Positions 10,701 to 61,377 of a DNA stretch of 64,000 bases are shown here, piece after piece. A program made the position numbers and the translations under genes. The DNA is taken from contig JBFWQM010000001.1 of assembly GCA_050249455.1 (NCBI GenBank), positions 21,316-85,315 on the forward strand, read 5' to 3'. The notes beneath the pieces were generated by a model. It had not been told where the DNA came from. It did not search any database and saw only the letters and a program-made list of their open reading frames with translations. Source of the stretch: Rhodospirillaceae bacterium (GTDB taxonomy: Bacteria; Pseudomonadota; Alphaproteobacteria; MPNO01; VGEU01). Position 1 is the first letter of the stretch, and each line of letters starts with the position of its first letter.

Positions 10701-11587
10701 TGGCGGCGATGCCGGACGCGATCCCGTTCCACGCCGGCGTGTCGCAGATCGCCGATCGCTACGACGGCTTCATCCTTGACGTGTGGGGCGTGATCCACGA
10801 CGGGATGAAGCTGTACCCCGGCGTCGTAGACTGCCTGACCCGCATGGCGGGCGCCGGCAAGCGCTTCGTCATGCTGTCCAACGCGCCCCGCCGCGCGCAT
10901 GCGATCGGCGAGGCGATGCGGGGCATGGGCGTGCCGGCGGATTTCTGTCGCGACATCATGTCGTCGGGCGAGGCGACCTACGAGGCGCTGGCGAAGCGCC
11001 CAGACGCCTGGTACGCCGCGCTCGGCAGGCGATGCCTGCACGTCGGGCCAAAGCGCGACGAGAATCTGTTCGAGGGCCTCGGCCTCACGCGCACGACCGG
11101 CGCGGAGGAGGCCGACTTCATCCTCAACACCGGGCCGTGGCGCGACGAGGAAACGGTCGCCGACTACGAGACGCTGCTGCAGGCCGGCGCGCGGCGCAAG
11201 CTGCCGATGATCTGCGCCAACCCCGACCTGGTGGTGATCCGCGGCGGCACCAAGATCATCTGCGCCGGTGCGCTGGCGCTGCGCTACGAGGCGCTGGGCG
11301 GCGACGTGCGCTGGCTCGGCAAGCCGCACGCCGACATCTACGACTTCTGCTTCTCCCGGCTCGGCATCGCCGACCGGCGCCGGATCGCCGCGATCGGCGA
11401 TTCGCTGCGCACCGACGTGGCCGGCGCCGCCGCCGCCGGGATTGACGCGATGCTGGCGACCGGCGGCATCCATGCCGACGAATTCGGCGTCGCGGCCGGC
11501 GTGCAGCCCGACGCCGCCAAGGTCCTCGCCGCGTGCGAACGCGAGGGCCACTTCCCGGCCGGCCTGCTGCCCGGCCTGGTCTGGTAG
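10697..11587 (+). CDS. HAD-superfamily hydrolase (subfamily IIA, TIGR01459-like)
   Basis: 296 aa with the DVWGVIHDG nucleophile motif, LSNAPR, and C-terminal AIGDSLRTDVAGA. Its start overlaps the EAL gene stop (GTGATG). Confidence 0.8.
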   Translation: MMAAMPDAIPFHAGVSQIADRYDGFILDVWGVIHDGMKLYPGVVDCLTRMAGAGKRFVMLSNAPRRAHAIGEAMRGMGVPADFCRDIMSSGEATYEALAKRPDAWYAALGRRCLHVGPKRDENLFEGLGLTRTTGAEEADFILNTGPWRDEETVADYETLLQAGARRKLPMICANPDLVVIRGGTKIICAGALALRYEALGGDVRWLGKPHADIYDFCFSRLGIADRRRIAAIGDSLRTDVAGAAAAGIDAMLATGGIHADEFGVAAGVQPDAAKVLAACEREGHFPAGLLPGLVW

Positions 11588-11644
11588 TCGCCGTCCGGCG
11601 CGCCCTGCGGCCGCCGGCGTTTCCGCTGATACGGTCGGACGAGG

Positions 11645-14600: not shown

Positions 14601-17542
14601 TCGCCGTCTCCGCCGACCAGGCCTCGGGGGAGGCGCGCGCGAAGGTGCAGGCGCTCGGCGAATCGCTGCGCGTCGAGATGCAGTCGGTGACCGAGACGTC
14701 GACGCGGCTGGCGACCGACGCCACGGCGCGCATCCAGTCGGCGTCCGACGTCCTGCTCGACCAGGTCAACACGCTGACCATGGCGTCCGAGCGCGCGGCG
14801 AGCCAGGCCGAGGTGCTGCACGACATGCTCGACCGGCAGACCGAGCGGCTGGAGCACGCGTCCGCCAACGCGGCGCAGACCACCGAGACGGCGCGCGAGC
14901 TGATCGAGCGCCACGCCCGCGACCTGGAGCAGGTGACGGCGGCGGCGATGACCCGCGTCACCGACCTGGGCGATGCGGTGCGCGCCCAGATCGATGCGTT
15001 CATCGCGGCGACCGAGACCGCGGCGGACGGCGCGCGCGCCACCACCGACGACGTGCGCGCGCAGATCACCGAACTGTCCGCCGACTTCCGCATGGTGGCC
15101 AACGACGTCGATTCGACCGCGGCGGCGATGAACGCGCATGCGCGCGCGCTGGCCGCCGCCTCGCACGAGGCGATCGCCTCGCTGCGCGAGGTGGGCGAGC
15201 TGATGCAGAGCCAGGGCGACGGCGTGGGCGCCGCCTCGACCAAGGCGGTCGCCTCGGTGTACGAGGTGAACGCGCTGCTCAACCGCTCCTCCGGCGACAT
15301 GGCGGGCGCCGCCGACCGGCTGACCGCGAAGGTGCGCGACGCCGGCACGGCGCTGCGCACGGAAGCCGGCGCCTTCGACGCCGCGACCGACCGCGTCGCG
15401 GAGCGCGTCGCCGCATTCGCGGCGCTGGCCGGCGAGCGTCATGCGGCGTTCGCCGCCGCCTGCGATGCCGCGGTCAACCAGGCCGCCGCCAGCATCGACG
15501 CCATCGGCACCCGCGCGCACGAAGCGGCGGGCGCGCTGGCGACCGCCAGCGAGGCGATGGCCCTGCGCGCTGGCGACACCGCGGCGCGCATCGTCGCCGA
15601 CGTCGATGCGGCGGCGCAGCGCTTCGATGCCGGTGCGGGCGCGCTGATCGACCGCGCGGCCGGCCGGCTCAACCGGCTGGGCCAGGACATCGCCGCCCGC
15701 GCCGCCGACGCGACGACCGCGAGCGACGATGCGGCCGAGCGCACGACCGCGGCGATCGCCGCCCTCGCGGCGGAGCTGCGGGCGCGGTCGGCCGAGTTCA
15801 TCGCGGTCGCCGAGCAGGTCGCGGCGGAAGCCGGCGGCCGGCTGGACGCGGTCGGCGCCGCGGTGCGCCGCAACGCCGAGGGCGCCGACGCGGCGATCGA
15901 CCGCACCGCCGCGCACGTCGAGGCAAAGGTCATCGACATCGAGGGCCGCCTGCGCCAGCACGCCGAGCAGGTGGAGCGCGGGGTCGAGGAGACCGTCGCC
16001 CGCGCCGCCGGCCGGGTGGAGGCGCTCAACACCGGCGTCCAGCAGCAGGCCAGCCGCATCGCCGGCCTGTCCGCCGAGACCGCGCAGAACCTGGCGGTCG
16101 CGCTCGAGTCCGTCGGCGAATCGGTGCGCGCGCACAGCCAGTCGCTGGAATCGTCGATGGCGCGCGCCGGAGACGTCGCCGCCGCCGCCGCCGAACAGGT
16201 GCAGCGCGACGTGACGGGACGGCTGTCGGAGATCGGCATCGCGCTGGAGGCGCAGGCGGCTGCGGTGCGCGGCGCCGCCGACGAAGCCGTGGCGCATGTC
16301 CTGGCGCGCAGCGACGAGGCGGGCGCGGCGCTGCACCTGCGCGCGGATGCGATCGTCACCGCGACCGACCTCGCGTCGCAGCGCATCGCCGCCGCCGGGG
16401 AATCGCTGGAGCGTCAGGCGGCGGTCATGGCCGAGGCCGCAGGCACGGCGCAGGAGCGGGCGGCGGACGTCGGCGACACCTTCGCACGCCAGGCCGGCGC
16501 GCTTATGTCGGCGTCGCAGGACGCGGTGTCGCGCGCCGCGCAGGTGCGCGACCTGCTGACCAGCCAGGGCGAGACGCTGCAGCGCATCCTGTCCGACGTG
16601 GATTCGCGCGGCGCCAGCATCGGCGGCGCGCTGGGCGACCAGTTCGAGCGGCTGTCGGCCACCGCGGCGACCGCCGCCAGCGCCGTCGACGCGCTCGGCG
16701 CGGAGATCGGGCGCCAGGCCGGGGCGCTCGCCGCGGCCTCGCAGGATTCGGTCGGGCGGCTGGAGGCCGTGATGGCGGCGTGCCGCGAGACCGCGACCGG
16801 CATGGCCGGCGTCGCCGCCAGGGCGGCCACCGACGTCGAGACCCTGGCCGGCGCGCTGAAGGACCAGTCCGGCAGCATCGAGACCGCCGCGCAGGTGGCG
16901 GAAGAACGGGTCGCCGGCATCGGCAGGGTGTTTGGCCAGCAGGCCGACGACCTCAACGCCGCCGCCGACAAGGCGAGCGCCCAGGCGGCCCGCTTCGGCG
17001 AGCAGCTGCGCCAGCACGTGCTGGAGCTCGCCGAATCGCTCGACCGCATCACCGCGCAGTCTGGCTCGATCGGCGACACCTTCAAGGAGCAGGCGCAGAA
17101 GCTGGTCGACGCCGCGGCCGAGGCCGAGAAGCAGGCCCGCGTCATCCGCGAGAACGCGTTCGACGCCCGCCGCGACGCCTTCCTCAGCACCGCCAAGTTC
17201 GTGGTGGAGGACCTGCAGTCGACGTCGATCGACATCACCCGGGTGATCGACCAGCAGAAGGCGCAGAAGCTCTGGAACAAGTTCACCAAGGGCGACCGCG
17301 GCATCTTCGTGCGCACCATGCTGTCCGACGACGAGCGCCGCGCCCGCACGGTGATCGGCGAGAAGTACGAGCGCGACGAGACGTTCCGCCGCTACGTGAC
17401 CCGCTACCTCGACCACTTCGAGAAGCTGATCAACGAGGCGCATGAGAGCGACCCCGACAACCTGCTCGCCTCCACGTTCCTTTCCGCCGACGTCGGCAAG
17501 CTGTATACGCTGCTCGCCAAGTCGGTCGGCCGGATGAACTGA
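11645..17542 (+). CDS. giant (1,965 aa) membrane-anchored Ala/Glu/Arg-rich repeat protein, unknown function
   Basis: Two hydrophobic segments near the N-terminus (LFAGVVASTIWVLLWALYI, VAVIFLSMAVPLAVIWLIVLFV). About 30 regular 29-residue repeats follow, then degenerate repeats. A non-repetitive C-terminal domain ends ...LSADVGKLYTLLAKSVGRMN. This frame has protein-like composition and G/C-rich third positions, unlike the overlapping open frames. Confidence 0.8.
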   Translation: MARMADTQMKFEGGHTATFSAAAFAAGGPTRTDRKMNQIAKRPDPDARAQAAPDPTGLFAGVVASTIWVLLWALYIQASVGWDLVMALLPHEVAVIFLSMAVPLAVIWLIVLFVRRTRAESREIRTVRDDVRRLLAPSAVANSDLATLNEVLHVRMREIGNAADEVSVDIRMRLDAVADQLRRQMTDLNHAADVAAGQAAQRVLSVGEALRQQTDDLTHAVERANALAEEKARAIAEVMRARMLEVAVASDEAIAETEAKASGVADALRREMLSIAAATDQAAAEARGRMQALAEALRDELSDLESAIERANAAAAEKAQAISATLQTQTREIDSVADQALRATETKAVAVGEILRKAVLSVADASDQVAIDSRDKILSVGDALRAQSDALHRSVEAAGTLAEEKSQAIAALMDDQVRGIAAASERAVADTAAQAAAAAQALHRTLEGQAESLRRSLDSTGALAEDRARSIGALMDGQVLSFATASDRIIVDTEARVIKVGESLRQAVQSVADAADRAAVESRDKVLSVREALKAQSDALARAVEAANALAEEKAHAIGAIMEEQVRGIAAASDLIVAETEDKAHAVGDVMRKEMLAVALASDQAVADARGKAMAVGDVLRHQMNDVNAAVELASAEAETRVQSIGEALRREMAAIADATDAASTDAQSRIDALGAALRREIDAADEAVRHSTAATTARARELGAALGEQVAAMTAASDHALADAEAKSQAIGEMLRQEVISIATAAEQGAGEARRKVVTVGEALSAQMEELNAAVQRAAALAEDRARAFGAAFETRVAEIAAAADRAAADTEGKTQAISALLRREAADMAVAADRAAAEARAKVEAIGETLRHEMDGLATAIDRTNVLAEERARAIGIVLRSQVHDIAAASDEAVAETETRAHAVQEILRRHVLAIGDSLRQETDGFATTLDHANAQAEERARAFGAILRGQVRDIAAASGEAVAETEARAQAVQEILRRQVEAIAVSADQASGEARAKVQALGESLRVEMQSVTETSTRLATDATARIQSASDVLLDQVNTLTMASERAASQAEVLHDMLDRQTERLEHASANAAQTTETARELIERHARDLEQVTAAAMTRVTDLGDAVRAQIDAFIAATETAADGARATTDDVRAQITELSADFRMVANDVDSTAAAMNAHARALAAASHEAIASLREVGELMQSQGDGVGAASTKAVASVYEVNALLNRSSGDMAGAADRLTAKVRDAGTALRTEAGAFDAATDRVAERVAAFAALAGERHAAFAAACDAAVNQAAASIDAIGTRAHEAAGALATASEAMALRAGDTAARIVADVDAAAQRFDAGAGALIDRAAGRLNRLGQDIAARAADATTASDDAAERTTAAIAALAAELRARSAEFIAVAEQVAAEAGGRLDAVGAAVRRNAEGADAAIDRTAAHVEAKVIDIEGRLRQHAEQVERGVEETVARAAGRVEALNTGVQQQASRIAGLSAETAQNLAVALESVGESVRAHSQSLESSMARAGDVAAAAAEQVQRDVTGRLSEIGIALEAQAAAVRGAADEAVAHVLARSDEAGAALHLRADAIVTATDLASQRIAAAGESLERQAAVMAEAAGTAQERAADVGDTFARQAGALMSASQDAVSRAAQVRDLLTSQGETLQRILSDVDSRGASIGGALGDQFERLSATAATAASAVDALGAEIGRQAGALAAASQDSVGRLEAVMAACRETATGMAGVAARAATDVETLAGALKDQSGSIETAAQVAEERVAGIGRVFGQQADDLNAAADKASAQAARFGEQLRQHVLELAESLDRITAQSGSIGDTFKEQAQKLVDAAAEAEKQARVIRENAFDARRDAFLSTAKFVVEDLQSTSIDITRVIDQQKAQKLWNKFTKGDRGIFVRTMLSDDERRARTVIGEKYERDETFRRYVTRYLDHFEKLINEAHESDPDNLLASTFLSADVGKLYTLLAKSVGRMN
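12080..14820 (+). repeat. in-frame tandem 87-nt (29-codon) coding repeats, arranged in 3-unit super-repeats
   Basis: Hand-counted consecutive units are exactly 29 aa. Examples: KARAIAEVMRARMLEVAVASDEAIAETEA, KASGVADALRREMLSIAAATDQAAAEARG, KAHAVGDVMRKEMLAVALASDQAVADARG. Confidence 0.85.
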
Positions 17543-17581
17543 AGGCGGCCGGCGGCTGACAAGTTTCGGCGCGGACGCGCC

Positions 17582-17662
17582 GGGGGCCCCCCCCCCCCCA
17601 CCCCCCCCCGGGGGGGGGGGGAGATCCCCCACCCCACCGGGGTGGGGTGTGGGGGGGGGGGG
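17582..17662. repeat. cluster of long C and G homopolymer runs with palindromic character
   Basis: G5, C13 (17587-17599), A, C9 (17601-17609), G12 (17610-17621), AGAT, CCCCCACCCCACC (17626-17638), GG, then GGTGGGGTGT plus G12 (17651-17662). Confidence 0.9.
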
Positions 17663-17689
17663 TCTCAACCAGTCGATGCCGGAGCCGCC

Positions 17690-18877
17690 GTGACGCCCCT
17701 GTTCCTGACCGTCCTCGTCGACATGGTCGGGTTCGGCATCGTGATCCCGCTGCTGCCGTTCTATGCCCAGAAGTTCGGCGCCTCGCCCGACCTGGTGACC
17801 CTGACGGTCGCCGCCTACACCCTGACCCAGTTCGTGTTTGCGCCGCTGTGGGGCCGGATCAGCGACCGCTACGGCCGCCGGCCGGTGCTGCTGGTCACCC
17901 TGGCCGGCACCGCGCTGTCCTATGTGTGGACGGGGCTGGTCGAGTCGCTGGCCATGCTGTTCGTCGCGCGCGCCTTCGCCGGCGCCTGCGCGGCCAACAT
18001 GGCGGTGGCGCACGCCTATGTCGCCGACGTCTCGGCGCCGGAGCACCGGGCGCGCGACATGGGCCGCATCGGGGCGGCATTCGGCATGGGCTTCGTGCTC
18101 GGGCCGGCGATCGGCGGGTTCCTCGCGGGGCCGGGCGGCGAGCCGGACTTCGCGTCGCCGTTCTGGTTCGCCGCCGGCCTGTCCGCGGTCGCCTGGGCGC
18201 TGGCGTGGCTGCGGCTGCGCGAGACCACCGACCCGGCGATGCGTCAGGCCGCGGCCGCCGCGCCGCGGCAGGGGCGGCTGGCCGCCCTGCTTGCGGGCGC
18301 GCGCCAGCCGCGGCTCGGCCGCCTGATCGGCCTAGCCTTCATGATGCCGTTCGTGTTCTCCGGGGTGGAGACGACGTTCGCCCTGTGGTCGGAGCGGGCG
18401 CTGGGCTGGGGCCCGGCGGAGAACGGCTACGTCTACACCTACATGGGCGTCGTCGCGGTGCTGGCGCAGGGGCTGGCAGTCGGCCGGCTGGTCCGCGCGG
18501 TGGGGGAGCGGCGGGCGGTGACGATCGGGGCGGCCGCCGTGCTGGCCGGCTGCCTGCTGCTGCCGTTCGCGTTGACCATCGCGCCGCTGCTGGCCGCGCT
18601 GGGGCTGATCGTGTTCGGGGTGTGCATCACCGGCTCGTCGCTCAACAGCCTGATCTCGCTCGAATCCGCCGCCCATGCCCGCGGCGCGACCCTGGGCCTC
18701 GGCCAGGCGTCCTCGGGCCTCGCCCGCATCCTGGGGCCGGCGCTCAACGGATTCGCCTTCGTCGGGCTGGGGCGCGATGCGCCCTATTTCCTCGGCGCGG
18801 TCGTGATGGTCGTCATGCTGGTCCTCGCCCGCGGCATCGTGGCGCCGGCCCGGCCCCGCGGCGGCGAAGAAACTTGA
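17690..18877 (+). CDS. MFS transporter (Tet/drug-H+ antiporter-like)
   Basis: Typical MFS N-terminus LTVLVDMVGFGIVIPLLPFY and the loop motif GRISDRYGRRPVLL. Start is set to GTG 17690 because GGAG lies 5 nt upstream. The track start at 17642 lies inside the G-run. Confidence 0.8.
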   Translation: MTPLFLTVLVDMVGFGIVIPLLPFYAQKFGASPDLVTLTVAAYTLTQFVFAPLWGRISDRYGRRPVLLVTLAGTALSYVWTGLVESLAMLFVARAFAGACAANMAVAHAYVADVSAPEHRARDMGRIGAAFGMGFVLGPAIGGFLAGPGGEPDFASPFWFAAGLSAVAWALAWLRLRETTDPAMRQAAAAAPRQGRLAALLAGARQPRLGRLIGLAFMMPFVFSGVETTFALWSERALGWGPAENGYVYTYMGVVAVLAQGLAVGRLVRAVGERRAVTIGAAAVLAGCLLLPFALTIAPLLAALGLIVFGVCITGSSLNSLISLESAAHARGATLGLGQASSGLARILGPALNGFAFVGLGRDAPYFLGAVVMVVMLVLARGIVAPARPRGGEET

Positions 18878-36334: not shown

Positions 36335-36475
36335 ATGATGAAGTTTACGGCGATGGTCGTCGTCGTCGCGGTCGTGGCGCTGCTCGGCGGGCTGGTGTTC
36401 CTGTCGATGTGGGACATCCCGCCGCCGTCGAAGCAGGTGGAGAAGGTCATCCCGAATGACCGCTTCCAGCGCTAG
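36335..36475 (+). CDS. small (46 aa) single-pass membrane protein
   Basis: [46 protein letters not shown] has one clean TM helix plus a polar tail. It overlaps the next gene's start by 20 nt. It is the 3' end of an otherwise off-frame-looking track ORF. Confidence 0.5.
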   Translation: MMKFTAMVVVVAVVALLGGLVFLSMWDIPPPSKQVEKVIPNDRFQR

Positions 36476-38318
36476 GCGACCCGGCGCGGCGCGCGCGGCA
36501 TTGGCCGCGGCGGCGTTTGCGGCCGGTCTTCTCGGCGCGGCGGCCGCAGCGCAGGACGCGCCGGGGCCGCCCGTTCGGCTGGTGCCGGCCCGGCCCGGCG
36601 CCGCGCCCGCGCCTCCGGCCGCCGCGGCGCCGGCGCCGACGGTCACCCCGCGCGCGGCGCCCCCGGACGGGCCGGCTGCCGCGTCTTCGCCCGCCCGCCC
36701 CGGCCGCAGCATCGAAGCGGTGCCGCTCGGCGCGCCCGACCCGGATTCGGTCGGCACGCTTGACACCGCCCAGGGCGGCTTCGGCGTCGACATGTGGGCC
36801 GAAACCGACCGCGCGGTGGTGGAGGCGCTGCTGCCGGCGCTGCCCGAGGCCTCCTCGCGCGCCGCCGCGGCGATGGCCCGCCGGCTCCTGCTCAGCCGCG
36901 CTGTCGCGCCCGCGGGCGCGCGGGGCGACGGCGTGCCCGCGGGCGCGCGGGGCGAAAGCCTGCTCGCGCTGCGCGCCGAGCGGCTGATCGCGATGGCCGA
37001 CGCCCGGGGCGCCGCGGCGCTGCTCGCCGCCGCGCCGCGCAGCGACGACGAGCGGCTGTCGCTGGCCGAGGCGGAGGCGCTGTTCCTCGCCAAGGACGAG
37101 AACGCCGCCTGCGCGCGGGTGCGCGCCGCGCCGCGCAGCTTCGCCAGCCCCTATTGGCAGCAGGCCGACGCGTTCTGCCTGGCGCTGACCGGCGACCATG
37201 CGCGCGCCGCGCTGAGCGCCAGCGTGCTGCGCGAACGCAGCCGCGAGGTGCCGGAAGGGTTCTTCGCCCTGATCGAGGCGCTGGGCGGCGACAAGCGGGT
37301 GGAAGTCGGGAAGCTGGAGCCGCCGCGCGCGCTGTACGGCGCGATGCTGCGCGCCGCCGCGGTGAAGCCGCCGCGCGCGCTGGCGGAAAGCAGGTCGCCG
37401 CTGCTGCTGCGTGCGGTCGCCGAAAGCGCCGCCGCCGATCCCGAGCAGCGGCTGGAGGCGGCGGAGCGCGCGGCGCGCCTGGGCATCCTGTCGCCGGAAG
37501 AGCTGGTCGCCGCCTACGAGGCGGTGACGCTCGATGCCAACGAGATGGCCGATCCGCTGACCGCCGCGGCGCGCAAGTGGGGGCCGCGGGCGCGTGCGCT
37601 GCTGCTGCGCGCGGTGTCGGTGCAGGTCACCCCGCAGGCCAAGGCGAGCCTGCTCAAGGCGGCGCTCGACCTCGCGCGCGGGCGCGACGGCCGCGACGTC
37701 CTGCTGCTCGGCGCCGGCGTCGGGCTGCGCGGCCTGCGGCCCGAGCAGTCGGTGGCGCCGGTCGCGGCGGATGCGGCGCGCGCGCTGATGCTCGGCGGAC
37801 GCATCGACGACGCGCTCGCATGGGTGCGCCTGGCGCGTGACGGCGCGCGCTTCGACCGCGACGTCGCCGCGGCGTGGCAGGCTTTGGTGCCGCTGGTGCT
37901 GATCGCCGAGCCCGACGACGACCCGGTGGGCGACAAGGCGACGATCGATCGCGCCCTGGCGCTGCCGGCGGATGCGGACGCCGCGGCCGTGCGCCGGCAA
38001 TTCCTGCGGCTCGCCGCGCTCGACGGCTTCGAGCGCGCGATCGGCACGCCGCGCTGGCTGGCGCTCAGCCGCGCCATGCGCGCCGCCCCGGTTGCCGCGC
38101 TCGCCGATCCGGCGCTGCTGCTGGCGCTGCGCGAGGCGGCCGCCGAAGGCAGGGTCGGCGAAACCGTCCTGCTCGCGCTGGTCGTGCTCGGCGGCGACGG
38201 CGCGGCCGCGGTGCAGCCGCCGACGCTCAACGCCGTCGTCGCGGCGCTGCGCACCGCCGGACTCGAGGCGGAGGCGCAGGCGATCGCCCTCGAAACGATG
38301 ATCCTGGCCGGCGACTAG
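36456..38318 (+). CDS. secreted Ala/Leu-rich helical-repeat protein, unknown function
   Basis: 620 aa with a signal-peptide-like N-terminus ([18 protein letters not shown]), a Pro/Ala linker, then a long helical region. Preferred over the antisense Arg/Gly-rich ORF 36447..38477. Confidence 0.65.
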
Positions 38319-38320
38319 CG

Positions 38321-39244
38321 ATGGCGGACGCGGCGGACGGCCGGCTGATCGAGGCGTTCCTGGAGATGATGGTGGCCGAGCGCGGGGCCGCGGCGAACAC
38401 CGTGGATTCCTACCGCCGCGACCTCGCCGACGCGGCGCGCCTGCTGGCTGCGCGCGGCGTCGCGCTGGAGAACGCAACGGCGGCCGACGTGCGCGACTAC
38501 CTCAACCACCTCGCAGTTGGCGGCCGCGCTGCGCCGACGGCGAGCCGGCGGCTTTCGGCGCTGCGCCAGTTCTTCCGCTTCCTGGTGTCCGACGGCCGGC
38601 GGCCGGACGACCCGACCGCGGCGGTCGACGCGCCGCGCCGCGGCCGGCCGCTGCCCAAGATCCTCACCGAGGCGGAGGTCGAGGCGCTGCTCGCCGCCGC
38701 CGCCGCGCGCGAAGGCCGCGCCGGCCGCCGCATCGAGGCGTTGCTCGAGATTCTGTATGCGACCGGCATGCGCGTGTCGGAGCTCGTCGGGCTGCCGGCG
38801 GGCGCGATCGCGCGCGACCGCCGCTTCGTCCTGATCCGCGGCAAGGGCGGCAAGGAGCGCATGGTACCGCTGTCGGAACCGGCACAGCGCGCGCTCGCCG
38901 CGTGGCTGGATGCGTCGGCGCGGCGCGGCGCGGCGTCGCGCTGGGTGTTCCCGTCGCATGGCGACACGGGCCACCTGACGCGCCAGCGCTTCGCACAGCT
39001 CCTTAAGGACATCGCCGCGGACGCCGGTATTGACCCCGGGCGGGTATCCCCGCATGTTGTGCGCCACGCGTTCGCCAGCCATCTCCTTGCGCACGGCGCG
39101 GATCTCCGAACGGTTCAGCAGATGCTCGGTCACGCCGATATCGCCACGACCCAGATCTACACCCATGTGCTCGACGAGCGCCTCAACGCGCTGGTTCGCG
39201 CGCATCACCCGCTGGCGCGCCGCGGCGCGCGCGCGCGCGACTGA
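38321..39244 (+). CDS. xerD: site-specific tyrosine recombinase XerD
   Basis: 307 aa from ATG 38321. [39 protein letters not shown] (catalytic R..HxxR..Y pattern). Confidence 0.9.
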
Positions 39245-39259
39245 GCGTCGGACGGTTCC

Positions 39260-40237
39260 GTGGCCGAAACAAGCCGCTCGATGCTGAGCCACCTCGACTT
39301 CGAGCAGTCGATCGTCGAGCTCGAGACCAAGATCGAGGAGCTGCGCCACCTGTCGGACGCCAGCGACCTCAAGATCGCCGGCGAAGTGTCGCGGCTGCAG
39401 GCGCGCCTCGACCGCATGCTGCGCCAGGCCTACGCCAAGCTCAGCCCCTGGCAGAAGGTGCAGGTCGCACGCCATCCGCGCCGGCCGCATTGCCAGGACT
39501 TCATCGACGGCCTGATCACCGACTTCACGCCGCTGGCCGGCGACCGCGGCTTCGCCGAGGACGCAGCCATCGTCGGCGGGCTCGGCCGGTTCCGCGGCGA
39601 GAGCGTCGTGGTGATCGGCCAGGAGAAGGGCGCCGACACCGACTCTCGGGTGAAGCACAATTTCGGCATGGCCAAGCCCGAAGGCTACCGCAAGGCGCAG
39701 CGCCTGATGCAGCTCGCGGAGCGCTTCGGCCTGCCGGTCGTCACGCTGGTCGACACCCCCGGCGCCTATCCCGGCGTCGGCGCGGAGGAGCGCGGCCAGG
39801 CCGAGGCGATCGCGCGCTCGATCGACGTGTGCCTGTCGCTGCAGGTGCCGGTCGTCGCCACCGTGATCGGCGAAGGCGGCTCCGGCGGCGCCATCGCGCT
39901 CGCCGCCGCGGACAGGGTGCTGATGCTGGAGCACGCGGTCTATTCGGTGATCTCGCCGGAAGGCTGCGCCTCGATCCTGTGGCGCAACGGCGCCAATGCG
40001 AAGGAGGCGGCGGAGGCGCTGAAGCTCACCGCTTCCGACCTGCTGCAGCTGCGCGTGATCGACGAGGTGGTGCCGGAGCCGGTCGGCGCCGCGCACCGCA
40101 GCCCTGAGGAGGCGATCCGCCGCACCGGCGATGCGATCGAAGCGGCGCTGCGTCCGCTCGCGGCCGAGGACGGGCCGGCGCTCAAGGCGCGCCGGCGCGA
40201 CAAGTTCCTTGCCATCGGCGCGCAGTTCGTCCTTTAG
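39260..40237 (+). CDS. accA: acetyl-CoA carboxylase carboxyltransferase alpha subunit
   Basis: [48 protein letters not shown]-like [12 protein letters not shown]. An alternative ATG start is at 39281. Confidence 0.9.
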
Positions 40238-40250
40238 CGCGGAGCCGCGG

Positions 40251-41771
40251 GTGGGCCGTTGGCTCGCGCTCGGGCTGTTCGCTGTCGCGCTGCCCGCCGC
40301 CAAGGCCGCGCTCATCTACCTCGCCGGCCACGCCAACCACGACGTCGCGTGGCTTCTGGTCGCCGCCGAGCGGCTGTTCGACGGCGGGCGCTACTACCAC
40401 GACATCCTGGAGCCAAACCCGCCGGTGACGCTGGCGGTGATGGCGCCCGGCCTGGTCATCGACGACCTGCTCGACATCGCGACCTATCCCGCCTACCTCG
40501 CCTGGGTCGTCGCGCTGATCGCCTTGTCGTCGCTGCTAACGTGGCGCAGCCTGCCGCGCGCGCTCGGCCGCGGCCCGTCCGACCCGCTGCCGGAGGCTTG
40601 GCTGGTGCCGGCGGCCCTGTGCCTGTTCCCGTGGTACGGCTTCGGCCAGCGCGAGCACCTGTTCGTCATCCTCTATCTGCCGGCCCTGGCGATGTTCCAG
40701 GCCGAGTGCCGCGGCCCCGGCCGCACGCGCGCGGCGTTCGCGGTGCCGGTGATGGCGCTGGCGACCTTCGGCCTGCTGATGAAGCCGTACTGGCTGCTGA
40801 TCCCCGCCGCGCAGGTCGCCCTGGCGCTGGTCGATGGCCGGCCGGTCCGGCGGTTCGTGCTGCTGGCGGCGCCGACCGCGACGGCGGTGGTCGCCGTCCT
40901 GGCCGCGCTCAACTGGTCGCTGCTCCACGAGTGGCTGAGCGTCGTGCCGCTGGCGACCGCGGTGTACGACGCCTATGACGACCCGCTGTGGCTGCCCAAG
41001 CTGCTGCCGCACGCGGCGATGATCGCGCTGGTCTGGGCGGCGCATCGCTACATGGTGCGCGACCGCGGCTCGACCGCGGTGGTCGTGCGCGACACGCTCG
41101 CCGCGGCGGCGGCGGCACTGGTGGTGGTGTTCCTGCAGCGCAAGGCGTTCCCCTATCACCTGCTGCCGACCATCCAGCTCACCGCGCTGGCCGCCGGCGT
41201 CGTGCTGCTGCGGCTCCTGAGCGACGGCGTCGCGCTGCGCCGCCCGGCCGTCACGCCGCGCGCGGCGGTGGCGCTGGTGTGCGCCGGCCTGGTGTTCCAG
41301 GCGGCGCCGGTGCTCTACCGCGCGTTCCGGCCCGTCCCGGCGGAGGAGCGCGAGCTGATCGCGCTGGCCGCGGGACCGGCGGCGGGACGGCCGTTCCTCG
41401 CCGTGTCGACCAGCGTGTGGCCCGCGTTCCCGATGGCGCTCGACAGCGGCGCGCAGTGGGTGGGCCGGGTCGGCTGCCAGTGGATGATCCCCGGTGCGCT
41501 GCGCCTGTCGCAGGGCGCGAGCGACGGCGACCGCGCGCAGGGCGCGCACTATGCCGGCATCGCGCTGGCCATGCTGGCCGAGGACATCGCCCGCGGCCGC
41601 CCGGCGGTGCTGGCGGTCGCGATCGGCGCGGACGGGCAGGGCCTCGACGGCCCGTTCGACCTGCTGGCCTACCTGCGCAGCCACGACGGCCTGCGCGGCG
41701 AGCTCGATGCCTACCGCGAGCGCGCCCGCGGCGCCTACTGGGCGGTCTACGACCGCGTGTCGCCGGGCTGA
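40251..41771 (+). CDS. polytopic membrane protein, paralogue 1 of 3 (GT-C-glycosyltransferase-like loop motifs)
   Basis: 506 aa from GTG 40251, with GGAG 6 nt upstream. Shares motifs with the two downstream ORFs: H-x-NHD-x-x-WL, E-x-x-PP, PEAWLV, FGQ(R/K)EHLF, LMKPYWLL, Q(R/L)K-x-x-x-YH-x-LP, WPAFP, QW-x-x-PGA. Confidence 0.7.
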   Translation: MGRWLALGLFAVALPAAKAALIYLAGHANHDVAWLLVAAERLFDGGRYYHDILEPNPPVTLAVMAPGLVIDDLLDIATYPAYLAWVVALIALSSLLTWRSLPRALGRGPSDPLPEAWLVPAALCLFPWYGFGQREHLFVILYLPALAMFQAECRGPGRTRAAFAVPVMALATFGLLMKPYWLLIPAAQVALALVDGRPVRRFVLLAAPTATAVVAVLAALNWSLLHEWLSVVPLATAVYDAYDDPLWLPKLLPHAAMIALVWAAHRYMVRDRGSTAVVVRDTLAAAAAALVVVFLQRKAFPYHLLPTIQLTALAAGVVLLRLLSDGVALRRPAVTPRAAVALVCAGLVFQAAPVLYRAFRPVPAEERELIALAAGPAAGRPFLAVSTSVWPAFPMALDSGAQWVGRVGCQWMIPGALRLSQGASDGDRAQGAHYAGIALAMLAEDIARGRPAVLAVAIGADGQGLDGPFDLLAYLRSHDGLRGELDAYRERARGAYWAVYDRVSPG

Positions 41772-41834
41772 TCGGCAACCGAAAGTAAACCTTGTCGGCG
41801 TATCGATGCCGGCCGAAGGCAGCACGCCCAAGCC

Positions 41835-43397
41835 ATGGCATCGACCGCCCACACCCACGGCCTCACGCCCGGCGCGACGCGCCGGACGTCTTCCCAGCAG
41901 CTGGCGCTGGCCGTGTTCGCGGTGGCGCTCGCCGGCGCCGCGGCCGCGGTGCTGGCGCGTTACGGTCACGTCAACCACGACACCGTCTGGCTGGTCATGG
42001 CGGCCGAGCGCCTGCTCGACGGCGGACGCTATATCGACGACGTCCTGGAGCTGAGCCCGCCGGTCCTGCTGGCCGCCTACATGCCCGGCGCGGTCGCCGG
42101 CCGCGTGTTCGGGATCGACCCCTATGCCGCCCATCTCGGCTGGGTCGCGCTGCTGATCGCGGGGGCGACCCTGCTGTGCCGGCCCGGGCTGCAGCGCCTG
42201 TTCGACCGGGCCGACGGCCAGCCGCTGCCGGAAGCCTGGCTGGTGCCAGTCGTGCTCGCGGCGATGCCGGGCTACGACTTCGGCCAGAAGGAGCATCTGT
42301 TCGTCATCCTGTCCCTGCCGGCGCTGGTGCTGCTGGCCGCGGAACGGCAGCGGCCGGGGACGCCGGCCGGCCTGGTGATCGCCGCGACCGTGCCGGCGGC
42401 GGTGGCGCTGACGATGAAGCCGTACTGGCTGCTGGTGCCCGCGGCGCTCGTCGCGTGGGCGGCGCTCGGCCCCAGGGTCGGACGCCGGTTCGCGGCCGTC
42501 GCGCTTGCGGCCGCTGCCGCCGCGGTCGCCGCCATAGCCGTCGCGACCCTGGCCGGATACGCCGGCTGGGCGACGATCGCCGGCTGGGCGACGGAGCTGC
42601 ACGATGCGTTCGGCGTCGCGCCGGCGCGGCTCGCGCGGCGGACGGAGACGGCGGCGATCGTGCTGGTCTTCGCGGCCGCGGCGACCGGCGCCTTCCTGCC
42701 GCGCGGCACGGCCGCGCGCACGCTCGCGGGAGGGCTCGTCGTCGCGGCCGCCGCGGCGTTCGCCGCGGCGCTGCTCCAGCGCAAGGGCTGGGCCTACCAC
42801 CTGCTGCCCGTGGTGCAGTGCGCGACGCTGGCGATCGGCCTGGTGGTGCTCCGCCTCCTGCGCGACCGCGACGTGCCGCGACGGCTTGCCGGCGGCCTTC
42901 TCGTCGCGGTCGCGATGACGACCGTCGTGCAGCACGTCTACCTCGCGGTGAACCGGGCGTTCCGGTCGGACCCCGCGTTCGTCGGCGAATTCGCGGCGCA
43001 CCTGCGCGACCATGCCGCCGGCCGCAGCTTCCTCGCGATCTCCACAAACCAATGGCCGGCGTTTCCCGCGGTGGTCCTGGCCGGCGCGCGCTGGGTGTCG
43101 CGTGCGCCGCATCAGTGGATGTTCCCCGGCGCCGTGCGCCTACTCTCCGGCGACGCCGAACAGCGGGCGCGCGGCGCGCATTACCGCGACATGGCGCTGG
43201 CCATGATCGCCGACGACATCGAGCGCCACCGCCCGCACGCCATCGCGATCGACGTCGGCGCCGACCAGCAGGGCGTCGGCGATGGCTTCGACATGCCGGG
43301 CTTCCTGCGCCAGGATCCGCGGCTGCGCGCGCTGCTCGACGGCTATCGCGAGGTCGCGCGCGACGACCGCTGGGTCTTCTATGTCGCCGGCCCGTGA
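41835..43397 (+). CDS. polytopic membrane protein, paralogue 2 of 3
   Basis: 520 aa with the same motif set and length as paralogue 1. The start is uncertain because there is no strong RBS. Confidence 0.7.
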   Translation: MASTAHTHGLTPGATRRTSSQQLALAVFAVALAGAAAAVLARYGHVNHDTVWLVMAAERLLDGGRYIDDVLELSPPVLLAAYMPGAVAGRVFGIDPYAAHLGWVALLIAGATLLCRPGLQRLFDRADGQPLPEAWLVPVVLAAMPGYDFGQKEHLFVILSLPALVLLAAERQRPGTPAGLVIAATVPAAVALTMKPYWLLVPAALVAWAALGPRVGRRFAAVALAAAAAAVAAIAVATLAGYAGWATIAGWATELHDAFGVAPARLARRTETAAIVLVFAAAATGAFLPRGTAARTLAGGLVVAAAAAFAAALLQRKGWAYHLLPVVQCATLAIGLVVLRLLRDRDVPRRLAGGLLVAVAMTTVVQHVYLAVNRAFRSDPAFVGEFAAHLRDHAAGRSFLAISTNQWPAFPAVVLAGARWVSRAPHQWMFPGAVRLLSGDAEQRARGAHYRDMALAMIADDIERHRPHAIAIDVGADQQGVGDGFDMPGFLRQDPRLRALLDGYREVARDDRWVFYVAGP

Positions 43398-44892
43398 GGC
43401 GCGCGCGCTGAGCGCAGGCCGCAGCCGGTCGGTCGACGCCGTGGCGGCGGCGGCGTTCTCGCTTGCGGTCGCGGTGGCGGCGGCGGGCGCGCTGCTGCTG
43501 TTCGGGCACCTCAACCACGACGTCGCGTGGCTGCTGGTGGCCGCCGGACGGCTGGCGGCCGGGGGCCGCTACGGCCTCGACCTCGTGGAGCCCACGCCGC
43601 CGCTCGCGCTCGTGGTCATGGCGCCGGCGCTCGCGCTGCGCGACCTTGCCGGCATCGCGCTCTACCCGGCGTACCTCGCCTGGGTGTGCGTCCTGGTCGC
43701 CGGCGCCGCGGCGCTGTCGCGGCCGATGCTGCGCGCCGCGCTGGGCCGCGCCGCGGACGGGCCGTTGCCGGAGGCGTGGCTGGTCGCGCCGGCGCTGGCG
43801 CTGCTGCCGGGCTACGATTTCGGCCAGAAGGAGCATTTGTTCGCCGTGCTCGCGACGCCGGCGGTGCTGTTGTTCGCCGCGCGCGGACCGGTGGCGCCGG
43901 CGCCGGCGCTGGCCGCGCTCGTGATCGGCGCTGTCGCCGTCCTGATGAAGCCCTACTGGCTCGTGGTCCCGGCCGTGGTCGCCGCCGCGGCGCTCGCGGA
44001 GCGCCGTCTCGACCGCCGGCGGGCGGCGCAGGCCGCCGCCATGTTCGCGGTCGCCGCGGCGGGCGTCGTCGCCGGCACGCTCGCGTGGTTCGGCGAATGG
44101 CTGGCCGTGGCGCGCCTCGCCGTCGACGTCTATGCCGCCTACGACCTCGCGCCCGTCGCGCTGGCGGCGACTGCCGCCGCCTATGCCGGCATGGTCGCGC
44201 TCGCGTGGTTCGCCGCCGGCCAGGCCGCGCCCGGCGATGGGGCCGTGCGCACCCTGCTGGTCGCCGCGGGGGCGGCCGTCGTCGCGGCGGCGGCGCAGCT
44301 CAAGGGCTGGCCGTACCACTACCTGCCGGCGGTGCTGTTCGCCGCGCTGGCGACCGGGATCGCGCTGGTGAACGGCGCGCGGCGCTCGCGCGCGGCGTCG
44401 CTCACGCTTGCCGCGCTGATCGCCGCGGTCGCGTTCACGCCGCTCACGCGCGCCTTCGCGCCCGAACCGGCGGATGTCGCGGAGTTCCGCGAGATGGTGC
44501 GCCGCCACGCGGCGGGCCAGCGGTTCCTGGCGCTCGACACCGACCTGTGGCCGGCATTCCCCGCGGCGGTGGAGGCGGGGGCGCGCTGGGCGTCGCGCGC
44601 CCCGGCGCAGTGGCTGGTCCCCGGCGCGGCGGCGCTGGTGGCCGGCGACGCCGCGGCGCGCGCGCGCGCCGATGCGGTGCGCACGCAGGCGCTCGACATG
44701 CTGGCGGAGGATCTGGCGCGCTACCGGCCGGCCGTGATCGCAGTGCGCATCGCGCCGCCGTTCCGCGGCCTGCCCGACGGCTTCGACCTAGCGGGTTGGC
44801 TGCGGCAGGACCCGCGCATCGCGGCGGCGCTCGACGGCTGCCGCCCGGTCGCGCGCGGCGCGGCGTGGACGTTCTGCAGGACAGGCGGCTGA
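43381..44892 (+). CDS. polytopic membrane protein, paralogue 3 of 3
   Basis: 503 aa from ATG 43381, overlapping paralogue 2 by 17 nt. Same motif set. Confidence 0.7.
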   Translation: MSPAREARALSAGRSRSVDAVAAAAFSLAVAVAAAGALLLFGHLNHDVAWLLVAAGRLAAGGRYGLDLVEPTPPLALVVMAPALALRDLAGIALYPAYLAWVCVLVAGAAALSRPMLRAALGRAADGPLPEAWLVAPALALLPGYDFGQKEHLFAVLATPAVLLFAARGPVAPAPALAALVIGAVAVLMKPYWLVVPAVVAAAALAERRLDRRRAAQAAAMFAVAAAGVVAGTLAWFGEWLAVARLAVDVYAAYDLAPVALAATAAAYAGMVALAWFAAGQAAPGDGAVRTLLVAAGAAVVAAAAQLKGWPYHYLPAVLFAALATGIALVNGARRSRAASLTLAALIAAVAFTPLTRAFAPEPADVAEFREMVRRHAAGQRFLALDTDLWPAFPAAVEAGARWASRAPAQWLVPGAAALVAGDAAARARADAVRTQALDMLAEDLARYRPAVIAVRIAPPFRGLPDGFDLAGWLRQDPRIAAALDGCRPVARGAAWTFCRTGG

Positions 44893-44902
44893 GCCGCCCG
44901 GC

Positions 44903-47716
<2,814 letters not shown>

Positions 47717-53654: not shown

Positions 53655-54557
53655 TCACGGCTGCGGCTTGTCGCCGGCCGGCTTCTCCTCCGCCTCCAGC
53701 GCATCGGCCAGGCGGGCGGCGGCGCTGCCGGGTCTCAGCGCCCGCGGCTGCGCCGCGTGCGGCGCCCAGCCGGTCAGCGTCAGCACCTCGAACGTCGCCG
53801 GGATGCGCCCGTCCGCGCCGGCATAGAGCGCGTGGTAGCGCGCCGCCGCTGCCATCAGGGTCGCGCGCCGGGTCGGGTTGCGGCGGCGGGCGACGGTCGC
53901 GTTCGTCTCCGCCATGCCGCGCAGGTCGCGCATCAGCGCGAAGGCATCCGCGTAGGTCACCGTGATGGTGTCGGAATCGACCACCGGCAGCGCGAACCCG
54001 GCGCGCTGCAGCAGCGCGCCGGCGTCGCGAACGTCGGCGACCGGGGAGGTGCGCGGGCTGGCGCCGCCTTCGACCTCGGTTTCACCTTCGATCAGCGCGC
54101 GGCGCAGCTCGACCAGGGTGTCGCCGCCCAGCATCGCGGCGACGAACAGCCCGTCCGGCTTCAGCGCGCGGCGGATCTGGATCAGCGCGCCGGGCAGGTC
54201 GTTGACCCAGTGCAGGTCCATCGCCGAGACCACCAGGTCGAACGCGCCGTCGGCGAAAGGCAGCGCCTCCGCGTCCGCCGCCACGCCGCCGCCGGCGCGG
54301 CGCACCATCGCCTCGGACAGGTCGCAGCCGACCAGCGTCTCGATCCCGCCGCGTCCGGCCAGCGCCCGCGCCAGCCCGCCGGTGCGGCAGCCGAGGTCGA
54401 GCGCCGCCGGGAACGCGCGCCGCACGTCGTCCAGCCGCTCTGCCACCCGCGCGGCGATCTCCTCGAACAGGAAGCCGTGCGCCGCGAACCCCGCCGCCGC
54501 GCGGTCGCGGTGCCGGCGCACCAGCTTGCGGTCGAAGATCGTGATGTCCGGCGCCAT
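53655..54557 (-). CDS. class I SAM-dependent methyltransferase (NDUFAF5/BioC-like)
   Basis: 300 aa from ATG at 54557. SAM motif ALDLGCRTGG, and VVSAMDLHWVNDLPG. Confidence 0.8.
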   Translation of the reverse strand: MAPDITIFDRKLVRRHRDRAAAGFAAHGFLFEEIAARVAERLDDVRRAFPAALDLGCRTGGLARALAGRGGIETLVGCDLSEAMVRRAGGGVAADAEALPFADGAFDLVVSAMDLHWVNDLPGALIQIRRALKPDGLFVAAMLGGDTLVELRRALIEGETEVEGGASPRTSPVADVRDAGALLQRAGFALPVVDSDTITVTYADAFALMRDLRGMAETNATVARRRNPTRRATLMAAAARYHALYAGADGRIPATFEVLTLTGWAPHAAQPRALRPGSAAARLADALEAEEKPAGDKPQP

Positions 54558-54596
54558 GGACGCTATATGGCATGGCGGCATGGCGGTGGACAGGAC

Positions 54597-54750
54597 CCAA
54601 CCCTCTCCGCCCTTCAGGGGATCGACGAGCAACGCTCGTCGATGGGTGCGAGCGCAGCGAGCGGGTGAGGTGGGTGCCGCCGCTGCGCGGTGTTCGACGG
54701 CGTTCCCCCACCTCACCCTGTCCCTCTCCGCCCCGCGGGGCGCAGAGGGA
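54597..54750. repeat. intergenic cluster of hairpins and short direct repeats
   Basis: CCCTCTCCGCCC occurs at 54601-12 and 54722-33. A 9-bp stem ATCGACGAG/CTCGTCGAT spans 54621-43. A 12-bp IR GGGTGAGGTGGG / CCCACCTCACCC lies at 54663-74 and 54707-18. An imperfect hairpin spans 54721-50. Confidence 0.75.
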
Positions 54751-54820
54751 ACGTGCGCGATGGCCGGTGCCACGGCGGCGCGCTACACTTCGGCGGCGAC
54801 AGGAACAGGGAGCATCGGCG

Positions 54821-60466: not shown

Positions 60467-61216
60467 CTACCCCGCCTTGGTCGCGAAGGCGAGGTAGTTG
60501 ACCGAGAGGTCGCCGCCGAGCCGCCATTCGTCGGTCAGGAGGTCGTAGCGCATCCCGGCCAGTTCGCCGAGCGCCAGGCCGTGGGACCGGAAGTGCCGGG
60601 CGAGCTCGGACGGGCGGACGAACTTGCGCCACTGGTGGGTGCCGCGCGGCAGCCAGTGCAGCACGTACTCGGCCCCGACGATGGCGAAGGCGAACGCCTT
60701 GGGCGTGCGGTTCAGGGTGGCGACCGCCATGGCCCCGCCCGGACGCACCACCGCGGCGCAGGCGCCAAGGAAGGCGTCGAGGTCGGCGACGTGCTCCACC
60801 ACCTCCAGCGCCACCACCGCGTCGAACCGCGCGCCGGCCGCGGCCAGATCCTCCGCCGCGGCGTGGCGGTAGTCGATGTCGAGGCCGACCGCCGCCGCAT
60901 GGCTGCGGGCGACGGCGACGTTGCGCTCCGCCGCGTCGATGCCGGTCACCCGCGCGCCCATCCGCGCCAGCGGCTCCGACACCAGCCCGCCGCCGCAGCC
61001 CACGTCGAGGACGGACAGTCCGTCCAGCGGTCGCAGCGCGTCGACAGGCCGCCCGAAGTGGGCGCACAGCCGGTCGCGCAGGAAGGCCAGCCGCGGCGGG
61101 TTGAACTTGTGCAGCGGTCGGAACTTGCCGTCGGGGTCCCACCACGCCTCCGCCATCGCCGCGAAGCGGGCGATCTCGGCGTCGTCGACGCTGGCGCGGG
61201 ACGGGGTCGGGTCCAT
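60467..61216 (-). CDS. ubiG: ubiquinone biosynthesis O-methyltransferase
   Basis: 249 aa from ATG at 61216. WWDPDGKFRPLHKFNPPRL, VLDVGCGGG and HWLPRGTHQW are UbiG hallmarks. Confidence 0.85.
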   Translation of the reverse strand: MDPTPSRASVDDAEIARFAAMAEAWWDPDGKFRPLHKFNPPRLAFLRDRLCAHFGRPVDALRPLDGLSVLDVGCGGGLVSEPLARMGARVTGIDAAERNVAVARSHAAAVGLDIDYRHAAAEDLAAAGARFDAVVALEVVEHVADLDAFLGACAAVVRPGGAMAVATLNRTPKAFAFAIVGAEYVLHWLPRGTHQWRKFVRPSELARHFRSHGLALGELAGMRYDLLTDEWRLGGDLSVNYLAFATKAG

Positions 61217-61377
61217 CAAAGCGGTCTCTGGCCTGGGGTGGCGCGGACTTGCCTGCGCCGTCGCCGAAAGAGTATGTATGCCGCCGATTGCCGCGGCAAC
61301 CCAGCCCCGTCCCGACCGGCGTTCCACAACGACGTTCCCGGCCGCTTGGTGCCGTCCGCCCTTCAGGGAATCCGCGC

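Follow-up and report, generated by a model that had tools for sequence, protein, structure and literature searches.

The stretch analysed here, a 64-kb window of contig JBFWQM010000001.1 from a Rhodospirillaceae bacterium (hereafter the window), carries three tandem genes between accA and secA that probably encode paralogous inner-membrane glycosyltransferases of the GT-C class, using a lipid-phosphate-sugar donor and acting on an envelope acceptor outside the cytoplasm. A first-pass annotation made from the sequence alone had described three same-strand open reading frames (ORFs) of 506, 520 and 503 aa, with a 63-nt gap and a 17-nt overlap at their junctions, lying between accA and a convergent secA; the coordinates were reconfirmed, and both flanking genes were identified by Pfam. 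The three genes and the relevant parts of their products are located as follows.

40251-41771, + strand: paralogue 1, GTG start, 506 aa; identified by ORF, alignment and the family hidden Markov model (HMM; 672 bits)
~40326-40481, + strand: paralogue 1, first extracytoplasmic loop (EL1) with N29-H30-D31, predicted catalytic loop
~41319-41768, + strand: paralogue 1, predicted C-terminal periplasmic domain
41835-43397, + strand: paralogue 2, ATG start, 520 aa; the copy chosen for structure modelling
41964-42119, + strand: paralogue 2, EL1 (residues 44-95; D49, D69, P75-P76), from the model
42957-43394, + strand: paralogue 2, C-terminal alpha/beta domain (residues 375-520), from the model
43381-44892, + strand: paralogue 3, ATG start, 503 aa
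~43504-43659, + strand: paralogue 3, predicted EL1 with D47
~44449-44889, + strand: paralogue 3, predicted C-terminal domain

The three products share 44-46% pairwise identity over their full length, and each scores 645-688 bits against the family HMM, a relatedness far above chance that puts figures on the earlier impression of related but well-diverged paralogues. Every motif of the series read at first pass is present in all three copies: H-x-NHD-x-x-WL, GGRY, E-x-x-PP and (L)PEAWLV in the N-terminal part, Y-x-FGQ(R/K)EHLF, MKPYWL and Q-x-K-x-x-x-YH-x-LP in the middle, and WPAFP, QW-x-x-PGA and D(I/L)-x-R-x-RP towards the C-terminus. The Asp of the NHD motif is D31 in copy 1, D49 in copy 2 and D47 in copy 3, and the C-terminal non-membrane domain, put at ~150 aa in the first-pass annotation, spans about 147-150 aa.

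An exhaustive HMMER profile search retrieved 6,647 clusters at 50% identity (E ≤ 1e-3), among which 3,575 reach E ≤ 1e-30 and almost every one of the best 150 is full length, about 490-660 aa long; a word-indexed homologue search, even with a profile, returned only 14-15 proteins, a misleadingly small number compared with HMMER. Members are widespread in soil Alphaproteobacteria (Bradyrhizobium, Acetobacteraceae, Pseudolabrys and sphingomonads) and are also present in Planctomycetota, Myxococcota, Gemmatimonadota, Verrucomicrobiota and Acidobacteriota. Across 94-144 representatives, 21-31% identical to paralogue 2, residues D49, G63, P162, K195 and Y321 are invariant, and conservation is 90% or more at D69, N74, P75, P76, Q151, R/K152, E153, H154, P196, Q315, K317 and P325. 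All of these family-conserved residues are retained in the three window copies.

Curated models did not capture this family. Pfam and NCBIfam scans of the three window proteins gave nothing above cutoff, with sub-threshold noise to PMT_4TMC, DUF4233, an MptD family ECF transporter component and an antiporter subunit, and no Pfam GT-C family was reached by any of 94 relatives. Within the same set of window proteins and relatives, PMT and PMT_2 did not match, and the GT87/DUF2029-type and other Pfam GT-C families of the DUF kind (e.g. DUF6056) stayed below the gathering score, so that the profile relationship to GT39, GT83, GT87 or DUF2029 considered earlier was not borne out. PMT_4TMC appeared in 3 of the 94 members at E 0.01-0.5, far under cutoff. 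A PDB sequence search with the three-paralogue profile yielded one match, to an unrelated viral protein (E 1.6), and aligning the family profile to E. coli ArnT with hhalign returned a probability of 0.8%, on which membership in the ArnT family was rejected. Because the 94 relatives match no Pfam GT-C model above cutoff and the ArnT alignment is this poor, we regard the family as a large one for which neither Pfam nor NCBIfam holds a curated model. Among the few source names seen, relatives are called 'hypothetical protein', with 'putative flippase GtrA' for one fusion protein, and our literature searches found no paper describing the family. A tblastn search of plasmids gave no match, and a scan of metagenome contigs for close relatives of the triple clade returned only sequences of ≤ 40% identity, the full-length matches lying at 27-32%.

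Structural comparison against solved proteins placed the family among GT-C enzymes. An AlphaFold2 model of paralogue 2, built on a 14-sequence alignment, reached a mean predicted local distance difference test (pLDDT) score of 85.5 and a predicted TM-score (pTM) of 0.86. In a Foldseek search of the PDB, the 18 best matches, all with a probability ≥ 0.98, were without exception GT-C glycosyltransferases, including DPY19 (a C-mannosyltransferase and the best match, E 2e-6), AftA, PglB, AglB, AftD, human and yeast STT3, ALG12, ALG3 and EmbA/EmbB, and the transporters that make up the list below them have probabilities < 0.25. The fold comparison proposed at first pass therefore returned significant PDB matches exclusively to GT-C enzymes, and neither profile nor structure searches produced a confident match to a non-glycosyltransferase family. 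The more specific label given then, 'ArnT/PMT type', holds at the level of the GT-C fold and fails at the level of profiles; ArnT, one of the two structures named for comparison, is not among the top matches, which are led by DPY19, AftA and PglB and not by ArnT or PMT.

The predicted topology points in the same direction. A crude Kyte-Doolittle prediction of transmembrane (TM) helices could not be interpreted in proteins so rich in Ala and Leu, and the AlphaFold2 helix map was used instead together with charge counts in the loops. The map comprises 11 TM helices with a cytoplasmic N-terminus, and its periplasmic parts are predicted to be a long EL1 carrying the invariant Asp, the near-invariant Asp and the Pro-Pro turn, three short loops whose motifs, FGQ(R/K)EH, (M/L)KP and Q-x-K-x-x-x-YH, supply conserved polar and basic residues, and the alpha/beta C-terminal domain; in paralogue 2, EL1 measures 52 residues (44-95) and contains two short helices. 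A positive-inside bias is present in 91 of 94 diverse relatives, the mean count of Lys plus Arg being 13.1 in predicted cytoplasmic loops vs 7.0 in periplasmic ones, although the latter are longer. The 11-TM topology supports a periplasmic position for NHD, GGR, D69, the Pro-Pro motif, FGQ(R/K)EH, KP and Q-x-K-x-x-x-YH, in agreement with the first-pass placement of the His-Asp and Pro-Pro motifs in the first extracytoplasmic loop. Basic residues on the outside are mostly conserved ones (R/K152, K195 and K317), and their modelled location would fit phosphate binding at the membrane interface. Collectively, the number of TM helices and EL1, the structural similarity and the conserved acidic EL1 residues agree with the GT-C fold, whose members are described as polytopic proteins that cross the membrane 7-13 times and have a loop outside the cytoplasm following TM1 (PMC11127046).

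The nature of the donor is suggested by the genomic context of relatives, which was surveyed in 79 loci from GTDB species representatives. A family 2 glycosyltransferase (GT2) gene lies within 2 kb in ~34 of the 79 loci, usually with a methyltransferase gene between or beside, and Pfam counts among neighbours were 32 for Glycos_transf_2, 13 for small EamA proteins, 12 for class-I methyltransferases and 4 for GtrA. Two homologues that are among the closest outside the window clade (P0012 and P0011, 32-34% identity) divergently adjoin a GT2 gene and a class-I methyltransferase gene, and P0011 has a GtrA gene nearby as well. The GT2 neighbour aligns end to end with PgfS and ArnC; against E. coli ArnC it is 31% identical (E 4e-45) along 308 residues, a span that takes in the membrane helices at the C-terminus. 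The small EamA neighbours, of 110-114 aa, are ArnE-like. In P0054, P0066 and P0115 (650-663 and 610 aa) and in L069:4028-5974, an N-terminal GtrA_DPMS_TM domain is fused to the GT-C protein, an architecture that, as read from the sequence, links flippase and transferase physically.

These elements recur as a module of an ArnE-like EamA or GtrA protein, an ArnC-like GT2, an S-adenosylmethionine (SAM)-dependent methyltransferase and the GT-C protein, as at L011:3022-6816, L057:7632-11437, L018:7871-11512, L002:6962-10787 and ~30 more loci. The first-pass annotation had suggested such a neighbourhood survey, and relatives proved to be accompanied by ArnC/GtrB-like GT2 genes, flippase genes and GtrA fusions. 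We read this linkage as characteristic of three-component systems for periplasmic glycosylation, a scheme described in PMC11127046, and polyprenyl-phosphate-sugar donors are inferred from the GT2 genes, the ArnE-like or GtrA flippases and the GtrA fusions of the relatives. The conserved methyltransferase is an additional feature beyond the three-component scheme. It forms a distinct subfamily, scoring 170-300 bits against its own HMM and bearing a hydrophobic C-terminal segment. The two class-I methyltransferases of the window (53658-54773, - strand, and 60470-61327, - strand) were tried as module partners and rejected: they score ~40-50 bits vs 170-300 and share only the generic SAM-binding segment with the module subfamily. 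As a separate observation from the pooled counts, a GT87 (DUF2029-type) GT-C gene adjoins the family gene in three loci devoid of GT2.

The class of acceptor is where the closest competing explanation arises. The paralogues could be GT-C enzymes acting on proteins, as periplasmic O-, N- or C-glycosyltransferases that recognise different targets or sequons, a proposal that differs from ours in the acceptor only and that we regard as unlikely. Its appeal comes from DPY19, PglB, AglB and STT3, all protein glycosyltransferases, standing among the top structural matches, from the recurrent PMT_4TMC matches and from the relatives' GT2, which is closest to PgfS (NCBIfam name 'glycosyltransferase PgfS'), the donor synthase of a streptococcal protein-glycosylation system. 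The C-terminal domain adds to it: modelled in isolation (pLDDT 91.1), it is a small alpha/beta unit that, among PDB entries, most resembles the globular domain at the C-terminus of AglB-S2 (3vu0; probability 0.97). This match is, however, weak (E 8e-3, TM-score 0.46), and the other fold matches of the domain are generic Rossmann-like methyltransferases; the PMT_4TMC matches are, as given above, far below cutoff and confined to three members, and the glycan- or lipid-directed AftA, AftD, Emb and ALG12 score equally well in the structural search. Compared with the oligosaccharyltransferases of family GT66 (PglB, AglB and STT3), the window proteins have in common an acidic EL1 residue after TM1 and Foldseek E-values of 3e-5 to 3e-4, but the prediction here is of 11 TM helices instead of 13, and the genes linked to the relatives are synthases of polyprenyl-phosphate monosaccharides, not assembly genes for pyrophosphate-linked oligosaccharides. 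The WWDYG motif that defines oligosaccharyltransferases was absent, on which this identity was rejected, and Pfam STT3 matched none of the three window proteins or 94 relatives. WPAFP is confined to the window clade, only its final Pro (P411) being conserved across the family.

Far less probable still is that a GT-C-like fold here performs another job, as in polymerases or ligases acting on undecaprenyl-pyrophosphate-linked oligosaccharides, non-sugar transferases or transporters. Such a departure might be entertained for a family that matches no curated model, in which many members are orphan genes with no donor synthase nearby and which has a methyltransferase partner to which the classic three-component scheme assigns no role. 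Yet WaaL, Wzy and SEDS are absent from the Foldseek matches listed, and the transporters listed do not exceed the low probability already given. In addition, the linkage to ArnC/GtrB-type synthases and ArnE/GtrA flippases, together with the fusions, bears the signature of a monosaccharide-phosphate lipid rather than of a pyrophosphate-linked oligosaccharide, and an invariant Asp directly after TM1 fits the catalytic-loop pattern of GT-C enzymes.

Most genomes carry one copy of the gene per locus; two copies were found in L026, L078, L039 and L048, and three copies nowhere but in the window and L004. The latter is a metagenome contig from JGI, and its gene order matches that of the window (aroK-aroB ... 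xerD-accA-three genes-secA-rotamase-argJ). In a neighbour-joining tree, the six proteins of the window and L004 form one clade in which each window copy pairs with one L004 copy. Because the copies pair one to one, the triplication is considered lineage-specific and older than the split between the two genomes. The sister group in this tree includes L006 and L008, both of which carry the GT2-methyltransferase module. As a side observation, the duplicated loci L026:3232-6368, L078:8457-11533, L039:7214-11431 and L048:9881-16507 (Bradyrhizobium/Tardiphaga) hold tandem, divergent or spaced pairs; since their copies fall in different subclades, these duplications appear to be older than, and separate from, the window triplication.

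All three copies are under purifying selection. Relative to the L004 orthologues, protein identity is 87% for copy 1 and 75% for each of copies 2 and 3, and the ratio of nonsynonymous to synonymous substitution rates (dN/dS), calculated by NG86 and approximate at the G+C content of the window, is 0.27, 0.40 and 0.42, respectively, while the flanking accA and secA give 0.12 and 0.18. Reading frames of all copies are intact in both genomes at a divergence of dS 0.27-0.40. Differences between paralogues cluster in TM5, TM7-TM8, EL4 (a long loop on the periplasmic side), intracellular loop 4 (IL4) and TM11 (8-52% identity), while the motif loops EL2, EL3 and EL5 are 50-100% identical; between orthologues, the same divergent segments are mostly 46-91% conserved. 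Resting on two to three sequences per orthologue group, this pattern is suggestive of retained catalysis with diverged substrate handling.

We considered whether the triplication might instead be redundant or decaying, with one working copy and the others drifting as duplicates. The faster evolution of copies 2 and 3 relative to copy 1, and the single copy per locus in most genomes, would be in keeping with this idea; it is opposed by the retention of every family-invariant residue and of intact frames in all copies of both genomes, by the one-to-one orthologue pairing, with all three kept since before the split, and by segments that diverge between paralogues while being conserved between orthologues. 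Redundancy or decay is accordingly judged quite improbable. The GT-C paralogues would more probably serve different acceptor positions or linkages, or act together as a complex, and the idea of three substrates is consistent with the retained candidate catalytic residues, purifying selection and segment-wise divergence.

Several observations weigh against the proposed envelope GT-C function and temper our confidence in it. Sequence-profile searches found no link to any curated GT-C family, whether in Pfam, NCBIfam, the PDB or the ArnT hhalign comparison. TM-scores to solved GT-C structures are moderate (0.35-0.51, query-normalised) with high root-mean-square deviations, and the claim is therefore one of fold-level similarity, not of close structural identity. 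Roughly half of the homologues lie among housekeeping genes with no glycan-related neighbour: at loci devoid of GT2, the neighbours are genes such as GrpE/HrcA, PanC, MipZ and HemY, a setting like that of the window, which gives no clue to the acceptor. The first-pass annotation had reported no donor-synthase or flippase gene in the window, and HMMs derived from the neighbouring GT2, ArnE-like and GtrA proteins indeed matched no window ORF even at E ≤ 10; because the 64 kb hold no such gene, the donor pathway is assumed to be encoded elsewhere in the source genome. Finally, constraint on the paralogues is somewhat relaxed, as their dN/dS lies above that of accA and secA.

Under the favoured assignment, an ArnC/GtrB-type GT2 encoded elsewhere in the genome would attach a monosaccharide to polyprenyl phosphate on the cytoplasmic side of the membrane, and a small ArnE-like or GtrA-type flippase would carry the lipid-linked sugar across. 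Each paralogue would then bind the donor at the periplasmic membrane interface, where the conserved Lys, Arg, His and Tyr residues may contact the donor phosphate and the EL1 Asp is the candidate catalytic or acceptor-activating residue. The last step would pass the sugar to an acceptor in the periplasm, for which an envelope glycoconjugate such as lipopolysaccharide (LPS) lipid A/core or a polysaccharide is the most likely candidate and a protein a less likely one. A concrete, albeit speculative, candidate is phosphate-free lipid A/core. The lipid A of Acetobacteraceae is phosphate-free with terminal mannose and glucuronic acid, as described in a paper that names no candidate gene for the mannose (PMC8036547).

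Several characterized systems can be set beside the family. In the GtrA/GtrB/Gtr* systems of O-antigen glucosylation (Shigella and Salmonella) and in CsbB/GtcA/YfhO (teichoic acids), the same logic of GT2, flippase and GT-C is encoded as in the relatives of the window proteins, some of which are GtrA-GT-C fusions. The window family differs in having no profile similarity to curated GT-C families, in the class-I SAM methyltransferase that accompanies its relatives as a fourth partner and, in the window itself, in GT-C genes that are triplicated and detached from GT2 and flippase genes. The lipid A aminoarabinose pathway (ArnC/ArnE-ArnF/ArnT) offers a second parallel, through the relatives' ArnC-like GT2 and ArnE-like EamA partner and through the transferase itself, in both cases a polytopic GT-C protein of about 500-550 aa whose C-terminal domain is periplasmic. 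ArnT itself (CAZy GT83) has 13 TM helices, whereas 11 are predicted here, and it is set apart by the profile and structural results given above (hhalign, PMT_2 and Foldseek).

The gene arrangement has a parallel in embC-embA-embB of mycobacteria, a tandem operon for arabinosyltransferases (GT53); the window likewise holds three tandem, same-strand, diverged GT-C paralogues, and Emb structures are among the Foldseek matches (7bvc, EmbA-EmbB; 6x0o; 7bx8). Emb paralogues provide a precedent both for splitting acceptor specificity and for forming hetero-oligomers, as in the EmbA-EmbB heterodimer, and by analogy with that complex a hetero-oligomer of the window paralogues is conceivable. They differ in size and donor: Emb proteins reach ~1,050-1,100 aa, carry large periplasmic domains that bind carbohydrate and use decaprenyl-phosphate-arabinofuranose supplied through the phosphoribosyl pyrophosphate (PRPP) pathway, whereas the window proteins, at ~500 aa, have a small alpha/beta domain and relatives that are linked to donor synthases of the GT2 type. 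A functional analogue may be sought in RgtA/RgtB/RgtC/RgtD (with RgtE) of Rhizobium and RgtF of Mesorhizobium, ArnT-like GT-C enzymes of Alphaproteobacteria through which LPS core/lipid A acquires galacturonic acid. In that set, several paralogous GT-C enzymes of one alphaproteobacterium decorate different positions of one envelope glycolipid with a polyprenyl-phosphate sugar made by a GT2, which makes it a plausible counterpart of the window triple. The Rgt enzymes belong to the ArnT superfamily, in which rgtF has been mentioned (PMC8036547), whereas the window family has no profile match to it.

A broader joint proposal, which we put forward tentatively and consider doubtful as a whole, combines these elements. 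The family would be distinct enough to form a new CAZy GT-C family, and its ancestral state would be a four-component module of an ArnE-like/GtrA flippase, an ArnC-like GT2, a dedicated SAM methyltransferase acting on the lipid-linked sugar or on the product, and the GT-C enzyme. Triplication in a Rhodospirillales lineage would then have given rise to three different sugar decorations, possibly made by a hetero-oligomer, with Acetobacteraceae-type phosphate-free lipid A/core as the candidate target.

Flanking genes were identified by Pfam as accA, secA, xerD, aroB, a PpiC-type rotamase and argJ, and the features bordering the cluster are the following.

39260-40237, + strand: accA, acetyl-CoA carboxylase carboxyltransferase alpha (Pfam ACCA, E 5e-139)
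44903-47716, - strand: secA, convergent, at the downstream edge of the cluster (Pfam SecA domains)
44885-44910, no strand assigned: GC-rich hairpin with an 11-bp stem and a 4-nt loop (RNA fold -23.8 kcal/mol, z -2.8 vs shuffles)

The end of accA (40237) is separated from ORF1 by 13 nt, with GGAG 5' of the GTG start, and the spacing is the same in L004; accA is probably co-transcribed with the three paralogues, and no promoter-like site was found when 39000-46000 was searched. No in-frame start codon lies 5' of 41835 in the 63-nt gap between ORF1 and ORF2, and the 17 nt shared by ORF2 and ORF3 suggest translational coupling. The chosen starts agree with those of independently called orthologues in other assemblies (P0005, P0007, P0004 and P0008). 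The stop codons of ORF3 and secA are 10 nt apart, and the hairpin, which has no T-run, covers both (paralogue 3 TGA, 44890-44892; secA, 44903-44905) and may be a candidate bidirectional terminator. Because the G+C content of the window is high (67-77%), it contains many long spurious ORFs on other frames and strands; the three + strand frames are taken as real genes because homologues exist and dN/dS is < 1.

Two further features of the window were recorded. At 36456-38318 (+ strand), 5' of xerD, a 620-aa Ala-rich protein with a signal-like N-terminal segment by eye has no Pfam match, and its 605-aa counterpart in L004 occupies the same position and likewise has no Pfam family. At 11645-17542 (+ strand), a 1,965-aa ORF gave only sub-threshold matches to apolipoprotein-like helical repeats; long ORFs compete with it in a second frame (11533-17445) and on the other strand (13100-18046), and it is regarded as a putative coding frame.

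The mechanism class proposed here, a GT-C enzyme with a lipid-phosphate-sugar donor, is already well known; what is new or uncurated is the large sequence family, its recurrent methyltransferase partner and the lineage-specific tandem triple. By glycosylating in the periplasm, GT-C enzymes shape LPS, capsules, teichoic acids and glycoproteins, and through these they affect resistance to antimicrobial peptides, recognition by phages and the immune system, and symbiosis. The family could supply enzymes for unexplained envelope sugar decorations, for example those of the phosphate-free lipid A of Acetobacteraceae, and its conserved methyltransferase partner hints at a variant of the classic three-component scheme. 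Assignment of donor and acceptor would annotate thousands of genes, and the tandem triple would offer a natural system in which to follow how the acceptor specificity of GT-C enzymes diverges after duplication.

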